DNA of 64,000 bases. Origin: Escherichia coli (lineage in GTDB: Bacteria > Pseudomonadota > Gammaproteobacteria > Enterobacterales > Enterobacteriaceae). The stretch lies in NCBI GenBank assembly GCA_025336725.1, contig GCA_025336725.1_3647.1; one strand, given 5' to 3'. The translations under genes were made by a program, and so were the position numbers. The first letter of the stretch is position 1. Each line of letters starts with the position of its first letter. The notes beneath the pieces were generated by a model that saw only the letters and a list, made by a program, of their open reading frames with translations, was not told the DNA's origin and ran no database searches. This document shows positions 171-49,312 of the stretch, piece by piece.

Positions 171-956
171 CTATGCATAATTAACAGTGATCCATTGACC
201 ATTTACAAGTTTTTGTAAAGGTCCTGCCCAGTAGGTTGAACCACGCATCTCTTTTTTGTCACCGAAATGCCAGCCTGTGACAACGTAGCCGTTGCGGATT
301 GGAGATTCAGAAACGCCGTCCACAAGTCTTGCACCGATTCTGATGTCTTGCACACCTGTCTGCGGGATAGTGATCGTTACATCACCGTTACCGTTAGCCG
401 TCACTCCGTTCACAGAGCGAACCACATTTCTGTTACCTACAACACAGTGCTGGCTTCTTACAACCATACTGTCACAACTTGCACCACCATTAACATATAC
501 TGACCCAGCCGTCAACTGACTGGCAACATTACAGTTGGTGAATGTTGCTGTATTGCTGATAGTAAGGTTATTGCACCTCATGTTATCGACAACTTCAACA
601 TTGCCTACCACTTTCAACAGCGCACGGTTAGCCGTGATCGCGTTAAGGTACATCAAAGTGAACTCTGGATTAATATCCGGCTGAGTTGGCTGGAATCTCC
701 AACGAAACGCATCTACTGTAGATGTGCCACCATCATCAAACGCCCCAGTGTTATCACTTAACCCAAAGTCGAGAGTTGTCTTATCTGGACCGATAGTTGT
801 CTCTATCCAAGCCTTATCTGTCTCGGCAGCTTTAAAGTTGATACGCTGCAAACCTAAGGGGCCTGTCATTGTATCGCCTGTAACTTTTACATACCTGGCG
901 TCTGCCTCTTCCTTAGTAATAATCCCAAGGTTTCTACGGGCAACAGGAATGTTCAA
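171..956 (-). CDS. tail fibre protein (short)
   Basis: 261 aa; N-terminal VTGDTMTGPL motif typical of phage tail fibre shafts; Gly/Asn/Thr/Val-rich beta-type sequence; sits in the fibre cluster. Track start is TTG with no clear RBS, so the true start is uncertain. Confidence 0.5.
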   Translation of the reverse strand: MNIPVARRNLGIITKEEADARYVKVTGDTMTGPLGLQRINFKAAETDKAWIETTIGPDKTTLDFGLSDNTGAFDDGGTSTVDAFRWRFQPTQPDINPEFTLMYLNAITANRALLKVVGNVEVVDNMRCNNLTISNTATFTNCNVASQLTAGSVYVNGGASCDSMVVRSQHCVVGNRNVVRSVNGVTANGNGDVTITIPQTGVQDIRIGARLVDGVSESPIRNGYVVTGWHFGDKKEMRGSTYWAGPLQKLVNGQWITVNYA

Positions 957-971
957 AAATCGCTCAGGTTA

Positions 972-990
972 TTATCACGTATTGTGATAA
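972..990. promoter_or_regulatory. perfect inverted repeat TTATCAC-N5-GTGATAA in intergenic gap
   Basis: Seen directly in the 62-nt gap between two fibre-cluster genes; 7-bp arms. Function unknown (operator-like site or RNA hairpin). Confidence 0.3.
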
Positions 991-1018
991 CGGCCCTCTG
1001 TAAGGTGGGATCTGCTCG

Positions 1019-1213
1019 TCAGCAATATATTTTGCCCAAGTCCCGGAGCATATTGAAAATATAGTTAAGTTCTTCACATGACGGCTTTTGACCAAGATCC
1101 CAACCTTTTCTCCACAAATCATCAATCGGGCGTAGCCTGTTCTGTCTGTGGGTGTTAGGCAGAACCTGATCCTCCTCTGCCCAAATCTCTAATGGAAAAC
1201 TAGGTTTTGACAT
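1019..1213 (-). CDS. hypothetical small protein
   Basis: 64 aa ORF; ATG preceded by AGGAG 5 nt upstream; start overlaps the stop of the upstream gene (translational coupling). Confidence 0.45.
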   Translation of the reverse strand: MSKPSFPLEIWAEEDQVLPNTHRQNRLRPIDDLWRKGWDLGQKPSCEELNYIFNMLRDLGKIYC

Positions 1214-1225
1214 TTTATCTCCTGA

Positions 1226-3298
1226 TTATGAGAAGTCTGGCGGGACAACATCTTCTACATACCCTTTCAGAGCAACCTGCCCCATATGAAGCACGGTAGA
1301 ATCTCTGGCGGTAACAGTGATGCTGTCAGACATTACTTGCGGGTATGCCCACACATACTGTTTTACCTCAGGGTATCTATACTCTATGGTTGCCATGTTC
1401 CCGCAGATACATCTCCATAAAAATTCTTGGTAATTCCTGGTTGGGTCGTAGCCATATACCGGAGCAAGCTCTTTGCTAGGAACGAACCCTGCAAGGTATT
1501 GTATTTCAGACGGTTGCCAACCTAACTTAACGATAGGTATGTTTACAGACTCTTTTGCCTTTTCAATACCACCCTGCATCACCCAATCGTAGCACTCAGT
1601 GCAGAAGAAATCAAGAGCACCTGCTTCCTTTTTATATTGGTCAGCAAGGTTCAGCTTTTGCGTAAGCTCGGTTTCCATAATGGTCGGAAAAAACAGCAAA
1701 GCTGTCATCTGAGCCGATGCAGCGTGTGCTTTTATTGCCTTTGAAATAGCTGCAATACGAGCGCCAAGCTTACCACGACAAAATGCTACATACTTGTCAT
1801 AAACACCACCAGTTTTAGGATCGTCAATAGTCCCAATATCTAATGCATACTCGCCTGTCTCATCATAAAACGCCTGTTTTGTAGGGTAATCATAAATACA
1901 AGGTCTACGAGTATCGGTATTGTACCACCACCATGGTTCACCAACCTGCATAATCACTGGCAGGTTGTTTCTCATAGCGGCTGATGCAAAATTCTTAAAT
2001 ACTGCAGTAAGGAAATTCATACCCTCTTCAATGGTTGGAGACAGGAGGTAGCTACAAGGTGTATACCCTGTTTTAGCGTAGTTATCGTTCCAGTCTCTTT
2101 GGGTCCATTCCAACGGACAGGCATCGCTGAAAAGCTCAAAACTTACAGATTGCATAACGTCGAAGTTATGTCGTTTGGCATTGTACATAAAATCATCATG
2201 CCATTTATAAGCTGCAGCGTTTAGAGCTCCTGTTTTGTTTATAGACCATTGGGTTCCTGACCATGTGTAGTCATAATAATGGCTCATACCAACATAATGG
2301 TTTATGGTTCCTGTATAGCCCAGACGCTTGATATTGCTCAACACCCTTAAAGGGGATACGTTCCACATATCGTCATATGCGGTGCAGATCCCAACGTCAT
2401 GCTCTTTCACTTGAATATTGTTAAGTTGCATCATTTTCCAACCTGTGTCTGGCTGAAGCAGATCTAGGCGCAACTCACACTCTACATTTTCCGTTCTTGG
2501 GTCTGTGCTATTGCTTACCCAATCTTTAGGCATAAGCGGTATTAAAATCCTTCTCACCTGTCGAGGATCAACACCCATCATGTTGTTGTTCTGGTCCATC
2601 CCGACGCAGTCCTCGAAATCAATATGAATTTCTGCAACATTCTTATCCTCTGAGATGCTGACAGCATATTGAGCTAAAGGAACATAGATGATTGTGCCAT
2701 CAACAAGGTCTACAGTCATAATCATCTTTTCAGGGGTGGAGAAGTTGCTGGCATTAGTTATTGACATTCTGAACCAAAGCTTGGTGTTTCTCATCTCATA
2801 GTGATCATCAAATCCAATGCCGAAATGGTCATACTTGTCAACTGTTTCCCAAATGCACCCAGCCATGCCTCCATATGTTCTTGACACTAAACGGTTAATA
2901 CAGCAGTTATTATCCGCAACAATACAGGTGCTTTCAGTCTGCTGTGTGTTTGTAACCCAATATCTTGGGTGAAACATTCTCTCCTCAACGGTATCCCAAG
3001 ATATTCTGTCAAGATTCTCATCTGAAACTATTGTACATTTTGCTCTTTGTGTTCCAATCATAACCCCTTGGGAGTTTGATGAAAACTCCATAAAGAAGCT
3101 TCTTGGCAACCTGTTTGGCAATTTGTCAACAATTTCTACAGGAATCTCAATACTGGTTGCCCCAACCGGGATAGTTACATCGCCCTCAACATGATCATAA
3201 TCCCTACCTGGAACGGCAGTATCTTGAACTGTGCGATAATGAAACCGTGCAGCCATTGTAGAGTAATCACGGTAAGGTTTAAAAACAGCTATTGCCAT
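1226..3298 (-). CDS. tail fibre/tailspike-like protein with Calx-beta-like N-terminal motif
   Basis: 690 aa; N-terminus contains GRDYDHVEGDVTIPVGATSIEIPVEIVDK resembling Calx-beta repeats; large Trp/Tyr-rich C-terminal domain; located between an I-like baseplate gene and a short fibre gene. Confidence 0.4.
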   Translation of the reverse strand: MAIAVFKPYRDYSTMAARFHYRTVQDTAVPGRDYDHVEGDVTIPVGATSIEIPVEIVDKLPNRLPRSFFMEFSSNSQGVMIGTQRAKCTIVSDENLDRISWDTVEERMFHPRYWVTNTQQTESTCIVADNNCCINRLVSRTYGGMAGCIWETVDKYDHFGIGFDDHYEMRNTKLWFRMSITNASNFSTPEKMIMTVDLVDGTIIYVPLAQYAVSISEDKNVAEIHIDFEDCVGMDQNNNMMGVDPRQVRRILIPLMPKDWVSNSTDPRTENVECELRLDLLQPDTGWKMMQLNNIQVKEHDVGICTAYDDMWNVSPLRVLSNIKRLGYTGTINHYVGMSHYYDYTWSGTQWSINKTGALNAAAYKWHDDFMYNAKRHNFDVMQSVSFELFSDACPLEWTQRDWNDNYAKTGYTPCSYLLSPTIEEGMNFLTAVFKNFASAAMRNNLPVIMQVGEPWWWYNTDTRRPCIYDYPTKQAFYDETGEYALDIGTIDDPKTGGVYDKYVAFCRGKLGARIAAISKAIKAHAASAQMTALLFFPTIMETELTQKLNLADQYKKEAGALDFFCTECYDWVMQGGIEKAKESVNIPIVKLGWQPSEIQYLAGFVPSKELAPVYGYDPTRNYQEFLWRCICGNMATIEYRYPEVKQYVWAYPQVMSDSITVTARDSTVLHMGQVALKGYVEDVVPPDFS

Positions 3299-6144: not shown

Positions 6145-9100
6145 TTACCAGAACTGGCGTTGAGCGTTGCCTTTCACCCACACATCCATAAATTGGGGCG
6201 TGCCCGTTCTTGTTAATATACCAACCGTATTTATGGTACTTCCGTTGCCATCGTAGTTGTTTGACGAAATCTCCTGTGCAATCTTGGCTGAAGAGATCGT
6301 GCCATTTTCTATGAAGGCATCTTTCAAGAACGCTTGGTTGTTCTTGATTGCGAAAGCAAGGGTTGCTGTTCCGTTTCCAGGGTTATATACCGCAAAATTG
6401 TTTGCACTAACCATAAAGTAGGATTGAACTTGGCCCCCAGACCCTTCCATCCCCAACTGGATACCTGCAACATATTTATTCCCTGCGGAGTCCACCTGTA
6501 TTTTTGTGCCCCACTGAGCGTTTACTTTACCCTCTAAGTCGGTTACAGCCTTAGATGTTGTAGCTACTGCAGCCCTGATCTCGGACACATCTCCAACATC
6601 ATCAATGATCTCCTGCTTAGCAACAGCAAGTTCTTGACGAATAGCTGACGCTGTTCCGTTAATCAGGTCAACAGTGGCCTGATTAGTTTCAGAAATATTT
6701 GCAGACAAATCTTTCTTAGCTTGGGTAAGCTTATTATCCAACCCCGTAATATTGTTGGTGTTGGTTGTAATCTGCCCTTTAGCAGAGGTTAATTGTTCAG
6801 ATAAGGCTGCAGTTTTCTGATTCAGCAGGTCCGTTGTGGCCTTGTTGGTGGTAGAGATCAATGTATTGAGATCAGATTTAGTGGTGTTGATCTTGCCATC
6901 TAGAGTGGTGTAGTTTTTAGATACCGTGGCGTTAGTCTGGCTAATCTTCTGGTCAAGAGTCTGAGAAGTTCTATTCAGCAAATCCACAGTGGCCTGATTG
7001 GTGCTCAGAATGCTTGCATCCAGCTCAGATCTCTGAGTATTCAACTTACCTTCCAGGCTCTTATCTCCAGCCAGATATCCTTTTTCAACATCACCGATCT
7101 GCTCGGTTAGCTCACCTTGTGCAGCAACCAGTTTTTCATCCAACGCATCTGTTTTCTTGTTAAGAAGATCAGTGGTGGATTTGTTGGTTGTCTCAATCAA
7201 CGACGACAGTTTGGCACTCTCATTATTCAAGTTGTTGGTCAACTCACCTTTCGTTGCCGTCAGCTTATTGTCCAGTGCCTCGGTTTTCCGATTAAGGAGA
7301 TCTGTAGTCGTCTTATTGGTTGATACAATCAGAGAGTTCAGCTCAGAGCTTTCCTGTGCTAAAGCATCTTCCAACTCCCCCCTTGTTGAAACAATCTTCT
7401 CGTCCAAAGCTTCAGTTTTCTGATTTAGCAGATCGGTTGTAGCTTTGTTAGTGGTCTGGATTAGAGAAGTCAGCTTGCCACTTTCTTTAGAAAGATCATC
7501 TGCAAACTTGTTCTGAGTGGCTACCAGTTTCTGGTCTAGAGTGGTAAGCGTTCCATTAACGTCCTGGAAGTTGTCGTGGGTTTCTTGGATGAATATTCCA
7601 ACCCTATCCCCCAACTGAGCATACAGCTTGTCTACTCTAGAGAACTCACCTTCCATGTGGTCAAAAGCCTCGTCAACTCTACCATCCATGTACCTGTTAA
7701 GTTCTGTGACACGATTTTCAACCTCTTCAATAGAGGAATCCAAAGTGCTCATCAACTCTTTATAAGTTTCTGTCTTTTTGAATTCAGCATCTATCTGAGG
7801 CATCAAATCCTCGATAGAGGTGTAGCAGCGTGCAGCGCATTCTACAAACTGAGAGCTACCAAAAGCGTTTGTGGTTCGAATATACCAATAATAAACCTTA
7901 TCGTTCTGCAGGCCTTCAGATGTCCAAGTTGAACCAACACCCATACGGGTGGCGTTTGAAGTAACGGTTGCATCGCTGGTGTCGGGCAACCTTGTCATAC
8001 CAGATGTCCAAAAGTCATACTGGGTGCTTACACTTGCTAAATCCCTGCTGTGTGGAATCAAGGTGATAGCAAAGTATCCCTGCTTAACCTCTACAGAAAC
8101 AGGAGCTTCAGGTGCCTGAATGTTAAACTCGCAGTACGCTTCTGGAGATACACCACCTTTATAAGATGTTGCAACCACGGTTGCTGTGTATGATCCTTTG
8201 GTCAAGCCTTCTACTCGGACAAACTGCTCAACTGTCTGTGCTGTCCAAACAATCTCTCCGTTCTTTCTTACCTGCACAATATTTTGAGCGTAAGTTCCAA
8301 CGTTGTCCCAAGCCAAAACACCGTGAGTTACTTCCCCGGCTTGGAGAACGGAATACCTGAAGTTTTGCGGTTGAGCTACACCAGATGGAGATATCGGAAT
8401 ATCTACATTACCAGAGTCCGGAAGTTGTCCTGTGGCATCATTCCACTCTTTAGCATCTTGACGGAGTTTTACCTTGACACCACCCTTTTTAGTAAACTCC
8501 CATTCAAGAACCCTCATTTCTTGGCCCACTATACCAATACTTGGGAGGTTCATTGTAACGTAACGACCAGGTTTAAATTTAAAACCTCGCATATTGCAGG
8601 TGACTTCAATAATCCTGCCAGCTCTAGCGCGTCTTAAGAAGATTGCAGAAACACGCTGGGCTTGATAAGGGCTGGTAACAAAGCGATAGTCTATATCGAT
8701 TATCTTTCTTTCTCCATCCTTCTCTATCCACTCTGGGACAAACACTGATGGAAAATCTGTTTCAGAATATCCTTTGGTCGGGCTAGTGAATCTGCCAGTT
8801 ATTGTGTTGGATCTTTTGTCAAACGAGGCTTCCGGATAGATCTTAACCTCACCACAGACACAGTCCTCACTCAGTGTCATTGTTGCAGGGCCATAGTATG
8901 CACCAACCAGCAAACCATACTTACCAGCAACATAACTAAGATCTGCACCACAGGCTTTCAGCATTTCTGCCATAATACTTGCTGGGGCCTCATCCATGTC
9001 GAACTCACCGTTAATTGTGTAACGTCGCTCACTGGTTCCGTCAGCGTTTTTTACCGCCTCGTCGCATATGTTGGCAGCCTCCTTGAAGGACTCCCAGTTG

Positions 9101-9744
9101 ATGGTCTCGTCAGGACATTTAAGGTACGTTCTTAAATAGTCTAGGATCACCAAGGCAGCGTTATTGGTATACACCTCTTTACTGATACGAGGATCATAGC
9201 ATTTTTTACCAACCTTGACGAGTGTGACGTTTGGCAACCCAAAAGGAAACTTGTTAGGGTCAAACTTGAAGCTGGCACGTAGCCAACTGATCCCTCTACC
9301 TATCATGTCTGGTGACCAAGATGGGCAGTGTGTCCCCATGAAAGGATCAGCTGTTTTTCTGTCGTTATGTAGCTCCCACGATACCAAATCTCCATACGAG
9401 GAAATAGGATTACCATCGATAAGTATATCTTCTATACCTTCCAGAGGGTGATTGGCAAGAACAATAGCACAATGAAGAGTTTTGTCTCTATCCTGCTCCA
9501 AAAACGCAAGCAATCCGGATGTGCGTGTCTTACCATACACTACAGAGCAAGGTGCAGCAGAAGATCTGAGAAGCTTTTGTCTATCTTGCTGACTTCTGTA
9601 AGATTTGTTGCCCTCAAAAATCTTATCCAGAGTTCTGGTGGTAACAGTGTTCAGGCTGTCAGCCAGAGCTGCCTTGGATGCGTTCCAGTCATAACTTGAA
9701 GATCTTGCAGAAGCAACGATGTTATCAATCATTGCAATTGGCAT
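6145..9744 (-). CDS. large tail fibre / host-specificity protein (lambda gpJ-like C-terminal domain, coiled-coil repeats)
   Basis: 1199 aa; central ~40-aa repeats (xLxSLIxTTNKxTTDLLNxKTxALDxKL) predicted coiled coil; fibronectin-III-like segment; C-terminal YFMVSANNFAVYNPGNG...AFIENGTISSAKI as in gpJ-type fibres. The ORF is truncated by a frameshift at about 6145. Confidence 0.6.
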   Translation of the reverse strand: MPIAMIDNIVASARSSSYDWNASKAALADSLNTVTTRTLDKIFEGNKSYRSQQDRQKLLRSSAAPCSVVYGKTRTSGLLAFLEQDRDKTLHCAIVLANHPLEGIEDILIDGNPISSYGDLVSWELHNDRKTADPFMGTHCPSWSPDMIGRGISWLRASFKFDPNKFPFGLPNVTLVKVGKKCYDPRISKEVYTNNAALVILDYLRTYLKCPDETINWESFKEAANICDEAVKNADGTSERRYTINGEFDMDEAPASIMAEMLKACGADLSYVAGKYGLLVGAYYGPATMTLSEDCVCGEVKIYPEASFDKRSNTITGRFTSPTKGYSETDFPSVFVPEWIEKDGERKIIDIDYRFVTSPYQAQRVSAIFLRRARAGRIIEVTCNMRGFKFKPGRYVTMNLPSIGIVGQEMRVLEWEFTKKGGVKVKLRQDAKEWNDATGQLPDSGNVDIPISPSGVAQPQNFRYSVLQAGEVTHGVLAWDNVGTYAQNIVQVRKNGEIVWTAQTVEQFVRVEGLTKGSYTATVVATSYKGGVSPEAYCEFNIQAPEAPVSVEVKQGYFAITLIPHSRDLASVSTQYDFWTSGMTRLPDTSDATVTSNATRMGVGSTWTSEGLQNDKVYYWYIRTTNAFGSSQFVECAARCYTSIEDLMPQIDAEFKKTETYKELMSTLDSSIEEVENRVTELNRYMDGRVDEAFDHMEGEFSRVDKLYAQLGDRVGIFIQETHDNFQDVNGTLTTLDQKLVATQNKFADDLSKESGKLTSLIQTTNKATTDLLNQKTEALDEKIVSTRGELEDALAQESSELNSLIVSTNKTTTDLLNRKTEALDNKLTATKGELTNNLNNESAKLSSLIETTNKSTTDLLNKKTDALDEKLVAAQGELTEQIGDVEKGYLAGDKSLEGKLNTQRSELDASILSTNQATVDLLNRTSQTLDQKISQTNATVSKNYTTLDGKINTTKSDLNTLISTTNKATTDLLNQKTAALSEQLTSAKGQITTNTNNITGLDNKLTQAKKDLSANISETNQATVDLINGTASAIRQELAVAKQEIIDDVGDVSEIRAAVATTSKAVTDLEGKVNAQWGTKIQVDSAGNKYVAGIQLGMEGSGGQVQSYFMVSANNFAVYNPGNGTATLAFAIKNNQAFLKDAFIENGTISSAKIAQEISSNNYDGNGSTINTVGILTRTGTPQFMDVWVKGNAQRQFW

Positions 9745-39508: not shown

Positions 39509-39585
39509 TGGTCTCCACGGAGTGATTCGAACACTCGACCTCCTGATCCCAAATCAGGCGCTCTACCAAGCTGAGCTACGCGGAG
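39509..39585 (-). tRNA. tRNA-Pro (anticodon UGG)
   Basis: Manual cloverleaf: 7-bp acceptor (one G-U), D-stem GCTC/GAGC, anticodon loop UUUGGGA, T-loop TTCGAAT, encoded CCA; 77 nt. Confidence 0.8.
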
Positions 39586-39594
39586 TTTATAATT

Positions 39595-39669
39595 TGGTGG
39601 CCCTGGGTGGAATTGAACCACCGTCTGGCGATTATGAGTCGCTTGCTTGAACCTTCCAGCTACAGGGCC
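39595..39669 (-). tRNA. tRNA-Met or tRNA-Ile2 (anticodon CAU)
   Basis: Manual fold: acceptor GGCCCTG/CAGGGCC, anticodon loop CUCAUAA, T-arm GGTGG-TTCAATT-CCACC, encoded CCA; D-stem only 3 bp; 75 nt. Confidence 0.65.
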
Positions 39670-39670
39670 A

Positions 39671-39746
39671 TGGTGCTGATGGCAGGACTCGAACCTGCAA
39701 CCTATTGATTACAAATCAATTGCACTACCAATTGTGCTACATCAGC
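39671..39746 (-). tRNA. tRNA-Thr (anticodon UGU)
   Basis: Manual fold: perfect 7-bp acceptor GCTGATG/CATCAGC, D-stem GCAC/GTGC, anticodon stem ATTGA/TCAAT, loop UUUGUAA, T-arm GCAGG-TTCGAGT-CCTGC, CCA; 76 nt. Confidence 0.8.
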
Positions 39747-39751
39747 AAAAA

Positions 39752-39850
39752 GGTGCTAGGCGATGGAATCGAACCACCTATGTATTCAACGACTACTTCG
39801 TCTATTTTCAGGATTAAAAATCCTCGCCCTTGCCAAAGGGCCTACCTAGC
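39752..39850 (-). tRNA. aberrant tRNA-like element (Lys-UUU-like anticodon loop, ~30-nt extra segment); possible pseudo-tRNA
   Basis: Good acceptor (GCTAGGT / GCCTAGC), D-arm (GCCC-N8-GGGC) and T-arm (GGTGG-TTCGATT-CCATC), but the anticodon stem is only 4 bp (loop UUUUUAA) and ~30 nt separate it from the T-arm; no encoded CCA; 99 nt. Confidence 0.3.
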
Positions 39851-39948
39851 ATATTATGCGAATCATGCTGCTAGTCGGCGATGACGACTGTAACATTTGT
39901 TAATCCGGTTCTGCTTCCGGAGCTCGCTTAATTTCATGATCCACGATC

Positions 39949-40038
39949 TGGCAGAGAGTAATGGAATCGAACCATCATCGAGGATATCTCAACGGGACGG
40001 TTTTCAAGACCGCTTGAGCACCATGCTCCCTACTCTCT
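39949..40038 (-). tRNA. tRNA-Ser (anticodon UGA)
   Basis: Manual fold: acceptor AGAGAGT/ACTCTCT, anticodon stem-loop GCGGT-CUUGAAA-ACCGT, ~20-nt variable arm with small hairpin, T-arm GATGG-TTCGATT-CCATT, CCA; 90 nt (type II). Confidence 0.7.
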
Positions 40039-40150
40039 TTTTATAAACAACACTGATAATGACACTGATTTTCGAACAGTTAGTGACTAGTATAAACGAC
40101 GATAAACATCAATGTCATTATCTATGTTATTTATCACAAATATGTAATTT

Positions 40151-40237
40151 TGGTGGGGAGTGATGGAGTCGAACCACCCGAGTCGCAATGACAATAGATT
40201 TACAGTCTACACCGCTACCCCTACGGTATAACTCCCC
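40151..40237 (-). tRNA. tRNA-Tyr (anticodon GUA)
   Basis: Manual fold: acceptor GGGGAGT/ACTCCCC, anticodon loop CUGUAAA, 15-nt variable arm hairpin (GTC-ATTGC-GAC), T-arm GGTGG-TTCGACT-CCATC, CCA; 87 nt. Confidence 0.75.
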
Positions 40238-40241
40238 GATT

Positions 40242-40316
40242 TGGCACCCCGTACTGGACTCGAACCAGTGTCAACGGCTTAGAAGGCCGCTGCTTTATCC
40301 ACTAAGCTAACAGGGC
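40242..40316 (-). tRNA. tRNA-Arg (anticodon UCU)
   Basis: Manual fold: acceptor GCCCTGT/ACGGGGT (two G-U pairs), D-stem GCTT/AAGC, anticodon stem GCGGC/GCCGT, loop CUUCUAA, T-arm ACTGG-TTCGAGT-CCAGT, CCA; 75 nt. Confidence 0.7.
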
Positions 40317-42870: not shown

Positions 42871-43425
42871 TTACTCCCTGCTGTCAATATCAAAACCCAT
42901 TGCAAGGCCGTATGCCTCTTCTAGCGGTAACAGTCTCCCCCACACATCCCAACCAACATCCAACTGCCTGCCAAATAACTGTTGTGTGGTTCCGTGAGCA
43001 TGACCAAACAGTTGAACTGATCCGTGGGGCTTTCTGTTCCACGTTGCAAACTGGTAATGGCTCATACAGATCAGATTCTTGTTGTGGCGAAGCTCGTAAT
43101 AATCTACAACCTCATGACAGAACTCTTTCATAATTCTGACAGTCGTCCTTGTGTCATGGTTACCACGAACAAGAATAATATGTCCGTTCAGCATATTTAG
43201 AATTTCAGGCAGTAAGTTGTTGATATTCTTATCCTTAGTGCATGCAATGTCTCCCAAGTGGAACACGGTGTCCCATGGTGACACAATTGAGTTCCACTTG
43301 TCTATGATCCCTGCATTCATGCTATCAAGATCGTGGTTATACTGCGATCTGTGCTTTTGACAAGAATCGAACTCCATAACACGCTGGTGGAGAAAGTGTG
43401 TGTCACTTGTTATAAAATATTTCAT
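42871..43425 (-). CDS. calcineurin-like metallophosphatase (candidate RNA 3'-phosphatase)
   Basis: 184 aa; metallophosphoesterase motifs ITSDTHF, GD (HLGDIA), VRGNHD, and a His cluster (HAHG); adjacent to a P-loop kinase and divergent from an Rnl1-like ligase. Confidence 0.6.
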   Translation of the reverse strand: MKYFITSDTHFLHQRVMEFDSCQKHRSQYNHDLDSMNAGIIDKWNSIVSPWDTVFHLGDIACTKDKNINNLLPEILNMLNGHIILVRGNHDTRTTVRIMKEFCHEVVDYYELRHNKNLICMSHYQFATWNRKPHGSVQLFGHAHGTTQQLFGRQLDVGWDVWGRLLPLEEAYGLAMGFDIDSRE

Positions 43426-43432
43426 ACTATCC

Positions 43433-43843
43433 TCATTTAAGTTTAATACAGTTTTTCAGTTCACGTTCCATACGATCCACAACCCTTTCTGGAACATTGT
43501 GGATACTTTTGTTACCGTGGCGATTCTCCACCACGATTACGGTGTAATTATACCCATTACGGATCGCCATGTCAATATACTCTTGCACATGCTTTTCTTT
43601 TGTGAATGTGTTGCTTACCACGACACGGTCGTATCCCATACGCATCATATCTTCTATATTATCTTTGCACCATTTTGCAGCAAGTGTGACTTTACTTGCA
43701 TCCCAGTTGTAATTTCCATCATCGTCGTACCAGAACATGTCGTTCTCAAAATGTGGATACAGACCTTCTAAAGATAGCGCATTTGCCAGTGTTGATTTGC
43801 CAGACCCTGGTAGACCACGCACGATATACAGCATTTTAGACAT
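43433..43843 (-). CDS. polynucleotide-kinase-like P-loop kinase
   Basis: Likely start ATG 43841-43843 (MSKMLYIVRGLPGSGKST...) with GGAGGG RBS; Walker A GLPGSGKST and VVVSNT segment resemble the T4 Pnk kinase domain. Confidence 0.55.
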   Translation of the reverse strand: MSKMLYIVRGLPGSGKSTLANALSLEGLYPHFENDMFWYDDDGNYNWDASKVTLAAKWCKDNIEDMMRMGYDRVVVSNTFTKEKHVQEYIDMAIRNGYNYTVIVVENRHGNKSIHNVPERVVDRMERELKNCIKLK

Positions 43844-43961
43844 AGCGACCCTCCGTTTTAATTTTAACGACAGTATACCGTGTTCTTTTGAACATTTCAA
43901 GTGTTGACATGATGCTGTTTGTGTGGGAAGATTGTGTAACAAAATGACAAACGAGGAACGT

Positions 43962-44879
43962 ATGATGAAGTATTTTAATGCAGATGATTTAGTGGATAAA
44001 GGTCTTGTAACCAGTCGGTATTATCCAAATCTCGGATTAAAGATCTACAAATATGCCAGAAAAGTATTCTACAACAATTTATGGCATTTGTCTCCGCGTC
44101 TACTGGAGTGCCGAGGCATTGTTGTCGGTAACGAGGGGAATGTTGTGGCATGGCCCTTCACAAAAGTGTTTAACTTAGGAGAAAACTCCACCAACCTACC
44201 TGACAATAAGCTTGTGACGGCTGTAGAGAAAAAGAACGGGTTCCTTGGCGTGGTATCCTCTCATAAAGGTGAACTATTGTTCTCAACGACTGGGTCTCTT
44301 GATTCTCCATATTGTAACCTTGCAAAGGAAACCATCCAGGAGCAATGTGGCAATTTAGATCTTATCAAGAAGGTTATGGGCCATGAAAACATGACATTTA
44401 TGTTTGAAATTTGTCACCCTTCAGACCCGCATATTGTTCATGAGGATCATGGTGCGTATTTGATAGGTTGTAGATACAATGATTCTGGAATAATGCTACC
44501 AGAAGCGGCTTTAGACGGTATTGCCAAGTATCTTGGTGCAAAACGTCCTCACACTGTGCGTGAAATTCCGTTCAGCTATGCAAAAGAATTAGCTGCAGAA
44601 ACAAGAGGTGAAGGGTATATGATTCGTAAGCCTTACTACCCTTATGATCTGCAGCTGAAGATCAAGTCTCCATACTATTTGGCACGGAAGGCCGTAATGA
44701 GGGGTAAAGCTTGGAAGATTTGGGATGATGATATCTTTAAACGTGTTGACGAAGAGTTTTATGGCATGGTAAACTTCATTCGTAGCAATTACACAGAAGA
44801 TGTGTGGAACTGCCTCCTGGAGCAAGAACGTCGTGAGATACTTGACTGCTATTTCCACAACGAGGACTATATGCAATGA
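43962..44879 (+). CDS. RNA ligase, T4 Rnl1-like
   Basis: Shares LECRGI, KVFNLGEN (T4 KFFNLNEN) and nucleotidyltransferase motif I lysine VEKKNGFLG (T4 KEDG); motif IV EGYMIRK and V LKIKSP. Track start is GTG 43923; ATG 43962 has GAGGAA RBS. Confidence 0.7.
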   Translation: MMKYFNADDLVDKGLVTSRYYPNLGLKIYKYARKVFYNNLWHLSPRLLECRGIVVGNEGNVVAWPFTKVFNLGENSTNLPDNKLVTAVEKKNGFLGVVSSHKGELLFSTTGSLDSPYCNLAKETIQEQCGNLDLIKKVMGHENMTFMFEICHPSDPHIVHEDHGAYLIGCRYNDSGIMLPEAALDGIAKYLGAKRPHTVREIPFSYAKELAAETRGEGYMIRKPYYPYDLQLKIKSPYYLARKAVMRGKAWKIWDDDIFKRVDEEFYGMVNFIRSNYTEDVWNCLLEQERREILDCYFHNEDYMQ

Positions 44880-44924
44880 AGAAGTGGAAAGTTCTTTTTA
44901 ATCATTCCAGCTTAAGGGAGCTGT

Positions 44925-45533
44925 ATGAAACTTGTGCATGGTGTTGGTGTTAATGATGCAGACTATCCTGTCAGGGTTTTAGACAAGGATACCGGAAAGA
45001 GAATCATGTGTCCTTTTTATATGACATGGTCAAATATGCTAGGAAGGTGCTACCTTAAAAACAAGAAATTTGAAGCTTATGCTATGGTAGAAGTTTGTGA
45101 AGAATGGAAAATCTTCAGCAACTTTAAGCGCTGGATGGAAAAACAAGATTGGCGGGATAAATTTTTAGATAAAGATATCCTGTTTGAAAATAATCTTATA
45201 TACTGTCCAGAAGCGTGTATTTTTGTTCCTCGTGAAATAAACAACTTCTTTGTAGCAAGGGTACCACAAAGAGGGGAGTGTTTGATGGGAGTAAGAAGAA
45301 AAGGCCCATCTTTTGCTGCCTATTGCAAAGATGGGGTTAATGACACACAGGTTTATCTTGGAACCTTTCCCACGCAGATTGAGGCACATATGAAATACTT
45401 GGAATGCAAACTGCAACTTCTTAGAGACTTGATTAGAACTGTAGATGACAGTAGGTTGCTATTAGGATTACGAAGAATTGAGAGTAAGATAGTTTTAGCT
45501 TTATCTTCAAAAACACCGATAGAAAATTTTTAG
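44925..45533 (+). CDS. homing-endonuclease-like protein with AP2-type DNA-binding domain
   Basis: 202 aa; N-terminal YMTWSNMLGRCY...EAYAMVEVCEEW motif common to phage endonuclease-associated domains; C-terminal VYLGTFPTQIEAHMKY AP2-like segment. Confidence 0.45.
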   Translation: MKLVHGVGVNDADYPVRVLDKDTGKRIMCPFYMTWSNMLGRCYLKNKKFEAYAMVEVCEEWKIFSNFKRWMEKQDWRDKFLDKDILFENNLIYCPEACIFVPREINNFFVARVPQRGECLMGVRRKGPSFAAYCKDGVNDTQVYLGTFPTQIEAHMKYLECKLQLLRDLIRTVDDSRLLLGLRRIESKIVLALSSKTPIENF

Positions 45534-45541
45534 AGGGATGT

Positions 45542-45889
45542 ATGAAAGTCTGGATAGATGATTTGCGTAACCCAGCTGATTACGGACAGGCAGATGCAGT
45601 TTGGTTTAAAACTTCACAAGAGGCTATGGAGTTTCTCAATACTCCTGCTAAAATGTATCGAAGAGTGACAGAGTGGTTTTTTGACCACGATTTGGGTGAA
45701 GACTCTGATCAAGACGGGTATGCTGTTTTATTGCGCCTGGAAGAGCTATTTGTATTTGGCAAGCCACCTGTTGTTGACAACGTGAAGATTTTCGTGCATA
45801 CTTCTAACCCATCAGCAGCTCGTAAATTTATGCTTGCTGCAGATTCGTTCAGAAAGTTTGGAATAGAGATCAAACAGAACATTTACTGA
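45542..45889 (+). CDS. hypothetical protein
   Basis: 115 aa ORF; conserved-looking Asp-rich motifs (WIDDLRNP, DHDLGEDSDQDG); function unknown. Confidence 0.4.
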   Translation: MKVWIDDLRNPADYGQADAVWFKTSQEAMEFLNTPAKMYRRVTEWFFDHDLGEDSDQDGYAVLLRLEELFVFGKPPVVDNVKIFVHTSNPSAARKFMLAADSFRKFGIEIKQNIY

Positions 45890-45897
45890 GGACACCT

Positions 45898-46659
45898 ATG
45901 CGACGACTGATTATTATCTCTGGTGCTGGCTTGAGTGCTGAATCCGGTATCCCCACCTTTCGATCTGGTAGCACTGCAATGTGGGAGAATTTCAGCATCG
46001 ATGAGGTGTGTAACATCCACACCTTTGCCAAGAACTACTATAAGGTGCATGACTTTTACAATGCACGGCGTGTAGCTCTGGGTAGTGTTGAGCCCAATCT
46101 TGCACATCTCCGGATCGCCGAGTGGTATTCTCGCTGGTCTGGTCGTGTAATCAACCTGACCACCAATGTAGATGATTTGCTGGAGCGTGCTGGTGTAAAA
46201 CATGAAGATATTTTACATGTCCACGGGTATTTGCCAGAAATAGTCTATGAGGACGATGAAGGAAGTAATGTCATTAAAGACGTTGGGTATTCGGAGGTAG
46301 ATGCAGGAGAGTATATTTGGGTTAAGCCTAATGTGGTATTCTTCGGAGAAGTTGCTCCAAAGTACACAGACATGTATGACCTATTGACTTCTCTGACAAG
46401 CAATGATATGGTTATCCTTGTAGGGTGCTCAAACACAGTTATCAATTTTAACTGGGAGCTGTTCCCTGCCTGTAACAAGGGCACTAAGCTGTTGATTGTT
46501 AACAAATACGACTCACAGCATTTGGAGGAGAATGGCATTTCACGTAGTGACATTTACCAGTATGAGGATCGCGGCATTCCTGTTTGGTTTAACGGGGCGG
46601 TTGACGCTTTCTCTGATAAAACATTTATTGAAACTGTAGAAAACTTCATGGAACTTTAA
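45898..46659 (+). CDS. Sir2 (sirtuin)-family NAD-binding protein
   Basis: 253 aa; sirtuin Rossmann motif GAGLSAESGIPTFRSG, catalytic-type His (ILHVHGY), VVFFGE and LVGCSNTV motifs; no obvious Zn-ribbon Cys pairs. Confidence 0.7.
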   Translation: MRRLIIISGAGLSAESGIPTFRSGSTAMWENFSIDEVCNIHTFAKNYYKVHDFYNARRVALGSVEPNLAHLRIAEWYSRWSGRVINLTTNVDDLLERAGVKHEDILHVHGYLPEIVYEDDEGSNVIKDVGYSEVDAGEYIWVKPNVVFFGEVAPKYTDMYDLLTSLTSNDMVILVGCSNTVINFNWELFPACNKGTKLLIVNKYDSQHLEENGISRSDIYQYEDRGIPVWFNGAVDAFSDKTFIETVENFMEL

Positions 46660-46672
46660 AAGGAGACCTTTA

Positions 46673-47386
46673 ATGCTGAATACTAAGTTAATTGACAATC
46701 TGGAAAAACTGTCCCAACCTGAAAACTACCTTTGGTCTGCCAACTGGGTGGAAAACTGGAACCGTGTGGCAGCTAAAGTGAAAAAATCATACACACCATT
46801 CGAATTACAGCTTAGCTTCATTGAGGAAGAGTTTAATGAAGTTCTGGAAGAGCTGGAGAAAGGTGATGGTGGAGATCATCTGCTAAAAGAGGCCTGCGAT
46901 CTTCATGTTGTTACAAGCTATGCCGCTTATCTTGTTAATGATAATCATGAAAAGTGGTCAAACCTGTTTGATAATCCGCGAGGTCTTAAGTTTAAGATCG
47001 GTGAGTTCTATGACACACTGATCGCTGCGAAAAACACCTCCAAGCAAAAAGCTTCTGCTTACCGCCTGGCGGAGTTGTCAACAGCTTTGCTATTCCAGCT
47101 TCGCGGTGATGTGTGCGGGATGATGCGGAAGGTTCTCAAATCTAATGACAGCAAGTTTGCACGGGTCAACCATCTACGGTATTCACACGGTGCCAGTGCA
47201 GATATGCCTGCTGAACAACTCGTAGAGTTAGAGATTAAAGATCTTGAGCGACGCTTCGATGGTCGATATGAAGGTTTTGTTGCTAAAGAAGAATTCTACA
47301 ACGGTAATAAGGTTATCATCTTCCTTGACAGCAAAGGTAAGATCATGAAGCCTTCAAGCTTCAAGGATGTAACAGAGTATATTTAA
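46673..47386 (+). CDS. hypothetical protein, possibly MazG-like NTP pyrophosphohydrolase domain
   Basis: 237 aa; N-terminal FIEEEFNEVLEELEKGDGGDHLLKEACDLHVV resembles the MazG/HisE helical EExxE...D motif. Confidence 0.3.
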   Translation: MLNTKLIDNLEKLSQPENYLWSANWVENWNRVAAKVKKSYTPFELQLSFIEEEFNEVLEELEKGDGGDHLLKEACDLHVVTSYAAYLVNDNHEKWSNLFDNPRGLKFKIGEFYDTLIAAKNTSKQKASAYRLAELSTALLFQLRGDVCGMMRKVLKSNDSKFARVNHLRYSHGASADMPAEQLVELEIKDLERRFDGRYEGFVAKEEFYNGNKVIIFLDSKGKIMKPSSFKDVTEYI

Positions 47387-47392
47387 CAACAT

Positions 47393-47418
47393 AGCCGGGG
47401 TTACCCGGCTTTACCTGT
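47393..47418 (+). terminator. rho-independent terminator-like hairpin
   Basis: AGCCGGG-GTTA-CCCGGCT followed by TTACCTGTTGTGG; immediately after the stop of the 46673-47386 gene. Confidence 0.45.
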
Positions 47419-47758: not shown

Positions 47759-48011
47759 TCTTGCTAAACCTGTAGAAGCACACCAGTTTGATGGAAGCTC
47801 TTCCTCAGCATCTGATCTGCAACGGTGGATTGATACAGGTGAGTTTACATCGTCACCTGTTCGGACCAGAGATATTCGTCGCATGTGTGAGCTTGTCGAG
47901 CGTTTGGTAACCTGGTCTTTTACAGGGGATTGGTTAGTTGACTTTATGGGAGACTGGCTGGTAATGAGTAAAGAAGAAATGTTTAAAATTTTTAAGGAGG
48001 AGACTGAGTAA
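47745..48011 (+). CDS. hypothetical protein
   Basis: 88 aa ORF overlapping its neighbours by a few nt (operon packing). Confidence 0.4.
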   Translation: MPLFNLAKPVEAHQFDGSSSSASDLQRWIDTGEFTSSPVRTRDIRRMCELVERLVTWSFTGDWLVDFMGDWLVMSKEEMFKIFKEETE

Positions 48012-49312
48012 TGCATCAAATCAAAACACCCCTGTACGCACTAAACAAAGATGGCAGTTACCAGCAGTGGAAAGTATTCACAGATGGTGAAAAGGTTATC
48101 GTAGAGTTTGGCAAGCTTGGCGGTAAATTGCAGTATAAAGAAACAGTATGCACGCCTAAGAACGTAGGTCGATCCAACGAGACTACAGCTGAGCAACAGG
48201 CCGAGCTGGAAGCGATCAGTAAGTGGGAAAAACAAGTTCGCCTGGGGTATGTTGAGAATATGGAAAATTGCGAGCAGGGTGTTGACCTTTTACCCATGCT
48301 GGTGCATGACTACCTGAAGCGTGGCAAGGCACTTAAATTACCTTGCTGGATCTTGCGTAAGTTAGATGGCCTTCGTCTGCTTGTTGTTTTCCAAAATGGT
48401 GAGCCTAAATTTATTTCCCGTGGTAATAAGTCCTACCCTATTCAAGGAAAGCTTTTAGAGCAACTTCGTTCTTTCCATTCTACCACTGGGATTAAACAAC
48501 TTGATGGGGAACTATACATTCATGGTCTTCCTTTGCAGAAAATAGTGTCTCTTGCTAAACGGTGGCGCACACAGGAAGAGATTCAGGCCGAGATCGATAA
48601 AGACTACGAGGCAGATAAAAAACGCCGTCATGCCGCAATTAAGGCAGGCTTATCAACATACAAAAACTTCAATAAGGTAGATATTCCTGTTGATGTTGAG
48701 CCTGTTCGTGATGATTTGCGTTACGGAGGGTATTGTAGCTATGACTTAGAGTATCATATTTTCGACATCCCTAGCGACAAGGTATGGTGGGATCCGGAAA
48801 CAGAATCTGGACGCTGTAAGGATCTTATGGATGCAGAAAATACCATTACCACTCTGATGCTTGACCATATCAAGGTTGTTGACGCAGAACTTGCGTACAC
48901 AGTTGATCATTGCGAAGAATCTGTTGGTGTATTCATGTCCGAAGGGTATGAAGGCACTATCATGCGTAACTTCTGTGGTAAATATGAATACGGTCAGCGA
49001 ACATCTGAAGCGTTGAAATGGAAAAAATTCAACGACACGGAAGCCAAAGTGGTGGATGTAGAAAAGGATAAGAACGATGAGGGTGTTCTTGTCTGTGTTG
49101 ACAAGGAAGGTGTTGTTGTTAAAATGAAGATGAAAGGGACGCACGAGGAGCGTAGTTATGACCGGATGCTGGAGTTGATTGGTAAGTTTGTGACTTTTAA
49201 ATATCAGGCGCGAACAGAGGATAACAACTTCCAGTTCCCGGTGGCTATATGCGTCCGAAATGTTAACCAGACACTTGGGAGGTGCTGGAATAATATAGGG
49301 TTTAGTAGGTAA
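48011..49312 (+). CDS. ATP-dependent DNA ligase (nucleotidyltransferase superfamily)
   Basis: 433 aa; motif I KxDGxR (LRKLDGLRLLVV), motif IV EGYEGTIMR, motif V ALKWKKF. DNA versus RNA ligase not resolved by eye. Confidence 0.55.
   Translation: MHQIKTPLYALNKDGSYQQWKVFTDGEKVIVEFGKLGGKLQYKETVCTPKNVGRSNETTAEQQAELEAISKWEKQVRLGYVENMENCEQGVDLLPMLVHDYLKRGKALKLPCWILRKLDGLRLLVVFQNGEPKFISRGNKSYPIQGKLLEQLRSFHSTTGIKQLDGELYIHGLPLQKIVSLAKRWRTQEEIQAEIDKDYEADKKRRHAAIKAGLSTYKNFNKVDIPVDVEPVRDDLRYGGYCSYDLEYHIFDIPSDKVWWDPETESGRCKDLMDAENTITTLMLDHIKVVDAELAYTVDHCEESVGVFMSEGYEGTIMRNFCGKYEYGQRTSEALKWKKFNDTEAKVVDVEKDKNDEGVLVCVDKEGVVVKMKMKGTHEERSYDRMLELIGKFVTFKYQARTEDNNFQFPVAICVRNVNQTLGRCWNNIGFSR

Follow-up and report, generated by a model that had tools for sequence, protein, structure and literature searches.

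We examined a gene on the plus strand at 45898..46659 of a 64,000-nucleotide stretch of contig GCA_025336725.1_3647.1 (assembly GCA_025336725.1, filed under Escherichia coli; this whole stretch is called the window below). The gene starts with ATG and encodes a protein of 253 residues, a zinc-less phage sirtuin derived from class III sirtuins. The window belongs to a Vequintavirus (rV5/FV3-like), with 92-97% nucleotide identity to genomes of the rV5 group, and in a 6-kb region of it identity is 97% to Vequintavirinae sp. EcoIv14a_Aya, against about 92% to Escherichia phage FV3 and to upwards of 100 further rV5-like phages. The sirtuin itself is 96-99% identical to proteins annotated as 'Sir2-like protein' or 'NAD-dependent deacetylase' in rV5-like records. 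Since hundreds of phage genomes already carry an annotated copy of this family, finding it here is not a new observation. Some 18-25 GenBank records in the MG0656xx series, deposited as 'Campylobacter phage' with C. jejuni as host, are also 91-98% identical to the rV5-like region, and their host label looks doubtful, being either a contaminant or a mislabel.

The gene at 45898-46659 is a real member of the SIR2 superfamily, and its assignment is unambiguous and far above chance. SIR2 (PF02146) was the only Pfam family matched by the product (residues 9-181, 95.8 bits against a cut-off of 24, E=3.8e-27), PHROG 2162 'Sir2' was matched at E=2e-109, and a HMMER search of PDB sequences recovered SIRT5 (E=2.9e-21) and E. 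coli CobB (E=4.7e-21). An AlphaFold2 (AF2) model with 29 homologues as input was predicted with confidence (predicted local distance difference test score, pLDDT, 90.8; predicted template modelling score, pTM, 0.88) and displayed the large Rossmann domain and the small domain expected of the fold. All Foldseek matches of this model were sirtuins, with the CobB-peptide complexes 6rxq/1s5p at the top (E=6e-19, template modelling (TM) score 0.75/0.84), followed by SIRT5 and Archaeoglobus Sir2 (Af-Sir2); matches to these three proteins span E=1e-15 to 6e-19. These searches bear out the preliminary description of this DNA, which had proposed a Sir2-superfamily protein from motifs that are all present: the Rossmann signature GAGLSAESGIPTFRSG (residues 9-24), a catalytic-type His (H109, within LHVHG), VVFFGE (residues 146-151) and LVGCSNTV (residues 174-181).

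Catalytic core, anion pocket and lost zinc site

The absence of zinc-ribbon cysteines, which had likewise been remarked on, was also confirmed. The protein has three cysteines in total (C38, C177 and C192), and the segment equivalent to the zinc ribbon of CobB, SIRT5 and Sir2Tm (residues 111-143) is free of cysteine, here and across the whole subclade, so that the four-cysteine ribbon of the SIR2 small domain is missing. The AF2 model nevertheless forms beta-hairpins at 110-128 and 142-146 despite this loss. In the jumbo-phage relatives at survey loci L067 and L069, both the zinc cysteines and the sequence TQN are still present, and we therefore regard the loss of zinc and the Gln-to-Thr change described below as derived within the phage lineage.

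In contrast to the zinc site, the catalytic core is intact. Among 29 clade representatives with 52-62% identity to the window protein, 46 positions are invariant, and every catalytic and NAD-binding residue is among them. The invariant set includes G9-A10-G11, F21-R22, Y54, R57, N90, D92, H109-G110, F149, E151, G176, S178 and N202, while S13 and G150 are kept in at least 90% of the representatives. The residues of SIR2 proteins that bind NAD and support catalysis (GAGxS, FR, the N and D of QNxD, His-Gly, FGE, GxS and the distal N) are all found, with the single substitution of T89 for the Q of the TQNID motif. By alignment, the protein has every residue needed for NAD+ binding, nicotinamide release and use of the catalytic His, and it is probably active as an NAD-using enzyme.

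The acyl pocket was compared with reference sequences of CobB, SIRT5 and Sir2Tm that are approximate, except for the N-terminal half of SIRT5, which the HMMER alignment to the PDB confirms. Y54 and R57 align with Y102/R105 of SIRT5 and Y92/R95 of CobB, a placement that the same HMMER alignment supports. The invariant C38 aligns with a small pocket residue (A86 of SIRT5, A76 of CobB), and the enlarged pocket therefore appears to be kept. In SIRT5, Y102, R105 and A86 form the pocket for the carboxylate of succinyl- or malonyl-lysine, with the Tyr/Arg pair binding the anionic acyl group. Both parts of the class III signature, the Tyr-x-x-Arg pair and a small residue at the position of A86, are found in the window protein. 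Elsewhere the sequence has departed from the reference enzymes. VINFN stands in place of VYPAA, the strand with which sirtuins pair with peptide substrates, and there are two inserts relative to CobB, SIRT5 and Sir2Tm, one of about 14 residues towards the C-terminus and one of 3-4 residues in the cofactor loop. Scores against the NCBIfam models likewise stayed below the CobB equivalog level (NF001753, 122 bits against a cut-off of 243; NF040867, 103.5 against 320). The calculated isoelectric point (pI) is 4.76, within a range of 4.6-5.9 across the clade. Judged from sequence and model, the protein thus appears to belong to a phage-restricted clade, derived from the CobB/SIRT5 branch, in which the structural zinc site is gone but the NAD pocket, catalytic His and class III Tyr/Arg pair persist.

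The surrounding gene cluster

The genes around the sirtuin had been called uncharacterised in the preliminary description, and 45542-45889 had been listed as having no known function. Profile searches instead identified an RNA end-healing and sealing cluster, with five partners all within 3 kb of the sirtuin: an Rnl1-type RNA ligase, a cyclic-phosphate-processing receiver-like (cREC) protein, a polynucleotide kinase (PNK)-like P-loop ATPase, a metallophosphoesterase and a MazG-like protein. The gene at 45542..45889 (plus strand, 115 residues) encodes the cREC domain (Pfam PF20274, E=1.2e-16; PHROG 1479). Downstream of the sirtuin, 46673..47386 (plus strand, 237 residues) encodes a candidate MazG-like all-alpha nucleotide pyrophosphohydrolase. 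Here the earlier label stood in part. PHROG 671 was matched at E=6e-22, and within the acidic motifs E51-E53, E56, E59 and D76 are invariant and E73 is kept in at least 90% of homologues; the Pfam PRA-PH match (E=0.066) fell below its cut-off, and the AF2 model (pLDDT 74) gave only weak best matches to dimeric dUTPases (E=0.2-0.9). The MazG-like label is tentative and moderately supported.

On the other side of the sirtuin, 43944..44879 (plus strand) encodes a T4 Rnl1-type RNA ligase, as annotated in FV3 (Pfam RNA_lig_T4_1, E=1.5e-14; PHROG 562, E=7e-66; NCBIfam TIGR02308, E=3.9e-10, below its cut-off). The ATG at 43944, used in the FV3 annotation, is probably the start of this gene rather than the GTG at 43923 of the program-listed open reading frame (ORF). 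Two genes of the cluster lie on the minus strand. The P-loop kinase at 43433..43840 (135 residues; Pfam AAA_33, E=1.4e-10; PHROG 2071, E=3.5e-57) takes its PNK-like label from AAA_33 and from PHROG 505 'polynucleotide kinase' (E=5.4e-10) only, as a PDB sequence search with this protein returned no match. Adjoining it, 42871..43425 (184 residues) encodes a calcineurin-like metallophosphoesterase (Metallophos, E=9.1e-5; Metallophos_2, E=5.7e-6; PHROG 547, E=3e-50; PDB 1xm7, E=1.1e-9). The strand switch falls at about 43841-43943, where a divergent intergenic region of 100 nucleotides (nt) separates the kinase from Rnl1 and the GC skew changes sign at about 44 kb.

Between Rnl1 and cREC lies an HNH homing-endonuclease-like gene (44925..45533, plus strand; PHROG 953, E=1.7e-69). 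Because Rnl1, cREC, Sir2 and MazG are contiguous in FV3, this gene is an insertion that interrupts the block and stands outside the pathway. We also observed that 44889-45736, which covers the HNH gene and the 5' half of cREC (its first ~195 nt), has no DNA homology to FV3 or to survey locus L006, and that the identity of the cREC protein to its counterparts in 342 phage records does not exceed 72.6%, compared with 92-97% for the flanking genes. The diverged cREC looks like a mosaic allele carried in with the homing endonuclease.

Same-strand genes in the block lie close together: HNH and cREC are 8 nt apart, as are cREC and Sir2, and MazG follows Sir2 after 13 nt. Each of these gaps contains a Shine-Dalgarno-like sequence. 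The sirtuin is probably co-transcribed with cREC and the MazG-like gene. A promoter and terminator scan was directed at operon structure and at the 'early region' placement of the preliminary description, and its counts, those of promoter-like sites included, did not exceed those of shuffled sequences. A GC-rich palindromic hairpin of seven pairs, six of them G-C, lies at 47393-47410 in the 63-nt gap 3' of the MazG-like gene; it was flagged on the minus strand only and may mark the end of an Rnl1-cREC-Sir2-MazG transcription unit. Further downstream, 48011-49312 encodes an ATP-dependent DNA ligase. Six tRNA genes (Pro-TGG, Met-CAT, Thr-TGT, Ser-TGA, Tyr-GTA and Arg-TCT; ARAGORN) occupy 39509..40316 on the minus strand, about 2.5 kb away from the genes for the phosphoesterase and the kinase, and the equivalent place in FV3 holds tRNA-Tyr and tRNA-Arg. 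As context only, it is possible that the phage tRNAs are substrates or backups for tRNA damage. Pfam searches found no Macro domain among the neighbours of the sirtuin, and the arrangement typical of SirTM operons is accordingly absent; homologues of NAMPT, PRS and HAD_SAK_2 were sought throughout the 64-kb window and none was found.

Distribution and gene linkage across phages

A tblastn search recovered sirtuin homologues from 1011 phage records in several families. Identity to the window protein is 91-99% in rV5-like phages, about 58% in T5-like Demerecviridae, about 55% in Mydovirus, about 47-51% in phi92-like phages and Phapecoctavirus, about 45% in KVP40-like Vibrio phages and 33-42% in jumbo phages. 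When prokaryotes were scanned with clade-specific patterns, using a single genome for every one of 185,579 species, just one solid match was obtained, on a contig of a metagenome-assembled genome, and we therefore consider the clade to be phage-restricted. That scan also yielded essentially no cellular clade members that would provide independent contexts. In the public record of one Klebsiella phage, the homologue (P0065) is misnamed 'tail assembly protein'.

Gene linkage was surveyed at 69 sirtuin loci from IMG/VR and GenBank, including as much as 10 kb of flanking sequence on either side. The loci fall into 25 clusters at 75% sirtuin identity and were searched both with profiles built iteratively from the window proteins and with families of neighbouring genes defined de novo. 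Five rV5/Mydovirus-like clusters (type A) carry the phosphoesterase, Rnl1, kinase, Sir2, DNA ligase and MazG genes in rearranged order, three of them with cREC, and a sixth cluster has the phosphoesterase and MazG only. In two rV5-like lineages lacking cREC, a family of 161 residues (f61; 9090-9575 of locus L061, and L048) lies between the kinase and the sirtuin. Its matches were confined to PHROG 652/11222, which are PHROGs without a function, and no Pfam family was matched at E<1. Family f61 may be a non-homologous replacement of cREC; a guess that it is a NADAR domain found no support in the same searches and was dropped.

Type B comprises five T5-like clusters (32 loci) with PhoH, NrdD, Sir2 and DUF7415, three of which also have HAD_SAK_2 (PF18143, E=2.9e-20), the HAD phosphatase of the 'Swiss Army Knife RNA repair proteins'. 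HAD_SAK_2 was present in 30 loci, nearly all of them T5-like, and in 29 of these it is encoded on the same strand as the sirtuin and begins between a 20-nt overlap and 459 nt past the sirtuin stop. The HAD_SAK_2 phosphatase of Salmonella phage Spc35 (SPC35_0095; 8797-9309 of locus L002) is itself misnamed 'Sir2 (NAD-dependent deacetylase)', apparently by way of PHROG 18062. In type C, seven phi92-like clusters have DUF7275, a DNA methyltransferase-like gene and acidic proteins lacking an assigned function upstream of Sir2, and no RNA or ADP-ribose enzyme was recognisable near Sir2 in any of the seven. The phi92-like phages encode Rnl1, cREC and the metallophosphatase elsewhere; in vB_EcoM_DE16, for example, Sir2 is found near 20 kb and Rnl1 near 51 kb.

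A further arrangement was found in the jumbo phages K64-1 and Asteriusvirus, where the order is NMNAT/Nudix, NAMPT, two small ORFs, Sir2, a Nudt16-like Nudix gene, cREC, a membrane protein and PIN-PhoH. The Nudt16-like gene overlaps the sirtuin stop, and cREC was matched at E=1.9e-24 in K64-1 and 1.5e-22 in Asteriusvirus. A trio of sirtuin, cREC and pyrophosphohydrolase, MazG-like in the window and Nudix in the jumbo phages, is common to two lineages that are very far apart, and a third has a pair of sirtuin and phosphatase. As cREC is kept while the MazG-like and Nudix enzymes are swapped between lineages, the difference looks like functional displacement within one pathway. Taken together, the survey supports a link between the sirtuin and enzymes that process phosphate or ADP-ribose in three lineages, through the Rnl1 module, through HAD_SAK_2 in T5-like phages and through Nudix-cREC in jumbo phages.

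We additionally observed genes for NAD salvage, either NAMPT with PRS or NAMPT with NMNAT/Nudix, next to the Rnl1 module or the Sir2-Nudix-cREC trio. This was the case in Mydovirus, Pakpunavirus, Thalassavirus and Alcyoneusvirus, including where a sirtuin is lacking (600-3129 of locus L003, 6322-9148 of L075, 7753-10759 of L076 and 1767-4379 of L078). Streptomyces phage SparkleGoddess, in which Sir2 lies 4 kb from RNA ligase-PNK, was not counted as support, since its sirtuin is of a different type: it contains zinc, lacks the Y-x-x-R pair and has a weak Macro-like partner.

Possible functions and relation to known systems

Gene context points to RNA repair, as it did for Iyer, Burroughs, Anantharaman and Aravind (2022, Viruses, PMC9503650, section 3.7.3), rather than to NAD depletion or generic counter-defence, although a role in RNA repair would fall under the broad 'counter-defence' that the preliminary description had allowed for. 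Building on what we observed, namely family membership, catalytic residues, fold and a recurrent cluster, and following PMC9503650 for the substrate, the phosphate chemistry and the roles of cREC and MazG, we tentatively favour the possibility that the sirtuin removes 2'-phosphates from RNA in an NAD-dependent reaction, within a cluster that would repair RNA, probably tRNA. A host anticodon nuclease would leave 2',3'-cyclic-phosphate and 5'-OH ends; the cyclic phosphate would be opened by cREC and/or the metallophosphoesterase, the 5' end would be phosphorylated by the P-loop kinase and the break sealed by Rnl1, and the sirtuin would then take off the leftover 2'-phosphate. In chemical terms, the RNA 2'-phosphate, held by Y54/R57, would attack C1'' of NAD+, and the by-product would be cleared by cREC together with a pyrophosphatase (MazG-like or Nudix). 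Such chemistry would formally be that of Tpt1, in which an oxyanion attacks C1'' of NAD+ and the 2''-OH of ADP-ribose then attacks in turn (PMC11417386), and by analogy it would parallel the imidate mechanism of sirtuins. Rather doubtful, to our mind, is the fuller version of this proposal, in which a sirtuin fold acting on a nucleic-acid phosphate is a non-homologous replacement for Tpt1/KptA in a tRNA repair route of the fungal and plant type, with cREC and the pyrophosphatase clearing an ADP-ribose cyclic-phosphate by-product.

In favour of 2'-phosphate removal we count the intact core with invariant Y54/R57, the pocket residue C38 and the tight gene block with its flanking repair genes and nearby tRNA genes, as well as the recurrent linkage in three distant lineages, the displacement of partners and the restriction to phages. 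We also count the departure from CobB, seen in sub-cut-off scores, zinc loss, T for Q and VINFN, and the fact that PMC9503650 arrived at the same prediction. Several points weigh against it. The kinase, metallophosphoesterase and Rnl1 alone suffice for heal-and-seal repair of the T4 type, which leaves no residual 2'-phosphate; the acidic pI is unlike that of typical RNA-binding enzymes; and, among relatives that have been characterised, the nearest deacylate proteins. There is also some circularity in the argument, because the function of cREC is itself a prediction, and the rV5-like contexts are not independent observations, because they share ancestry. No Rnl1, kinase or cREC was found within 10 kb in 20 of the 25 sirtuin lineages sampled from IMG/VR, and about half of the lineages, including the KVP40-like phages and several singletons, have no recognisable partner at all. 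The T5-like phages, which form the largest group, are without an Rnl1-type ligase, and phi92-like phages keep the sirtuin about 30 kb away from the Rnl1-cREC module. Conversely, the Rnl1-kinase-phosphoesterase core occurs without a sirtuin in Pakpunavirus PA10 and Vibrio phage Cody, where it adjoins NAMPT and PRS. Lastly, our literature searches on sirtuins of T5 and rV5 phages found no biochemical or genetic test of a clade member.

The main rival, which we consider rather unlikely, is that the protein is a lysine deacylase like CobB or SIRT5 (desuccinylase, demalonylase or deacetylase) that resets the acylation of host or phage proteins. Acs, a target suggested for KVP40-like phages (PMC5107563), might be among its substrates, as might the neighbouring RNA and DNA ligases, which depend on lysine. 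The top sequence and fold matches, to SIRT5, CobB and the CobB complexes, are bona fide deacylases, every residue that deacylation by sirtuins requires has been retained, among them the Y-x-x-R pair with its specificity for acidic acyl-lysines, and the zinc-ribbon segment is still modelled as beta-hairpins; the many genomic contexts without RNA-repair genes are likewise as expected of a general-purpose enzyme. However, a deacylase of this kind would have lost a zinc site regarded as structurally important in canonical sirtuins, along with the VYPAA strand and the Q of the NAD-ribose motif, and the scores lie far under the CobB equivalog cut-offs. Moreover, the host already has CobB, no Macro or ARH partner accompanies the gene, and the enzymes that repeatedly accompany it (cREC, HAD_SAK_2, Nudix and MazG) are phosphoesterases and pyrophosphatases, for which O-acyl-ADP-ribose has no obvious need. 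A further alternative is an NAD+-consuming enzyme that acts on neither RNA nor acyl-lysine, either an ADP-ribosyltransferase for protein or DNA or an enzyme of small-molecule or nucleotide metabolism. On this reading, the sirtuin, cREC or HAD and a pyrophosphatase would together make or destroy a metabolite derived from NAD or ADP-ribose, possibly a host immune signal, in connection with NAD salvage.

This alternative, which we hold to be distinctly unlikely, is consistent with the jumbo-phage trio, which lies directly downstream of NAMPT and NMNAT/Nudix with no adjacent RNA ligase. It also fits the T5-like pair of sirtuin and HAD phosphatase in a nucleotide-metabolism block (NrdD, PhoH) without Rnl1, a Nuc_deoxyri_tr2 gene that adjoins the sirtuin in one jumbo phage, and NAMPT and PRS beside the module in Mydovirus. 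Nevertheless, no specific substrate can be named for it, there is no Macro partner as in SirTM systems, and NAMPT and PRS are absent from the 64-kb window; the catalytic His and the Y-x-x-R pair favour two-step transfer onto an anionic group over plain NAD hydrolysis, and there is no similarity to the NADase sirtuins of defence systems. Loss of the zinc cysteines and substitution of the canonical Q of TQNID might instead indicate a degenerate, non-catalytic sirtuin, be it a binder of NAD or ADP-ribose or a structural remnant. We think this highly improbable, given a confident fold prediction, 46 invariant positions in the 29 representatives that include all catalytic and NAD residues, and retention of the gene in 1011 phage records from several families.

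Sirtuins are widespread in virulent phages, including T5-, rV5-, phi92- and KVP40-like phages and jumbo phages, and their activities are predicted only. The gene family, the zinc loss and the predicted role are already published, so that the question raised here is a known one and not a discovery; the window adds another copy of a published gene, and its value lies in offering an E. coli phage in which a direct test could conveniently be made. If removal of RNA 2'-phosphates were confirmed, sirtuin chemistry would reach RNA phosphates, a new reaction class for sirtuins. The means by which large phages counter defences that cleave tRNA would be explained, and functions would be given to cREC, as its first assigned biochemical role, and to its MazG-like partner. 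If the protein were a deacylase, phages would be reprogramming the host acylome.

Among known systems, the defence SIR2 NADases (ThsA, DSR1/2, SIR2-HerA and SPARSA) share the superfamily and the NAD+ substrate with the window sirtuin, and the preliminary description had drawn attention to this kinship. Unlike them, the window protein comes from a virulent phage, falls in the class III deacylase branch and consists of a single domain, with no sensor or partner domain attached; no SLOG, HerA, pAgo or DSR C-terminal module is fused to it or encoded in its operon. No PADLOC defence SIR2 model was matched significantly, the only PADLOC result being a partial match to an unrelated candidate model (13.6 bits, E=0.0075), which is not meaningful, and the closest relatives are the deacylases CobB and SIRT5. 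A defence-type NADase was rejected on these grounds. With CobB and SIRT5 themselves, the window sirtuin has in common about 27-31% identity, TM scores of 0.75-0.84, the catalytic His, the NAD motifs and the Y-x-x-R pocket. It differs from both in having no zinc cysteines, T for Q, VINFN for VYPAA and two inserts, and in being restricted to phages. The Sir2/CobB protein of KVP40-like Vibrio phages is a homologue (about 45% identity over 79% of the query) that is also without zinc ligands, as Skliros et al. noted for such phages (2016, Front Microbiol, PMC5107563) when they proposed a CobB-like deacetylase of Acs. It differs in its surroundings, which in ValKK3 carry no signal of RNA repair.

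The likeness to Tpt1/KptA is one of proposed functional analogy, comprising an NAD+-dependent two-step transfer and a context of ligase, kinase and cyclic phosphodiesterase as in fungal and plant Trl1-Tpt1. Tpt1/KptA has the ADP-ribosyltransferase (ART) fold whereas the window protein is a Rossmann-type sirtuin, and the two share no sequence similarity, so that it is not a member of that family. The closest known system is the phage clade of PMC9503650, for which Escherichia phage V5, Proteus phage Mydo, T5-like SP15 and Serratia phage BF served as prototypes and KptA/Tpt1-like removal of RNA 2'-phosphate by the sirtuin was predicted. The three neighbourhood types described there were reproduced independently in our survey. 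The window sirtuin shares the family of that clade, its confinement to phages, the lack of an adjoining Macro gene and a neighbourhood made up of T4-like RNA ligase, cREC, nucleotide kinase, MazG and calcineurin-like phosphoesterase. It is set apart by the HNH gene between Rnl1 and cREC and by a diverged cREC allele, and in nothing essential does it differ from the published clade.

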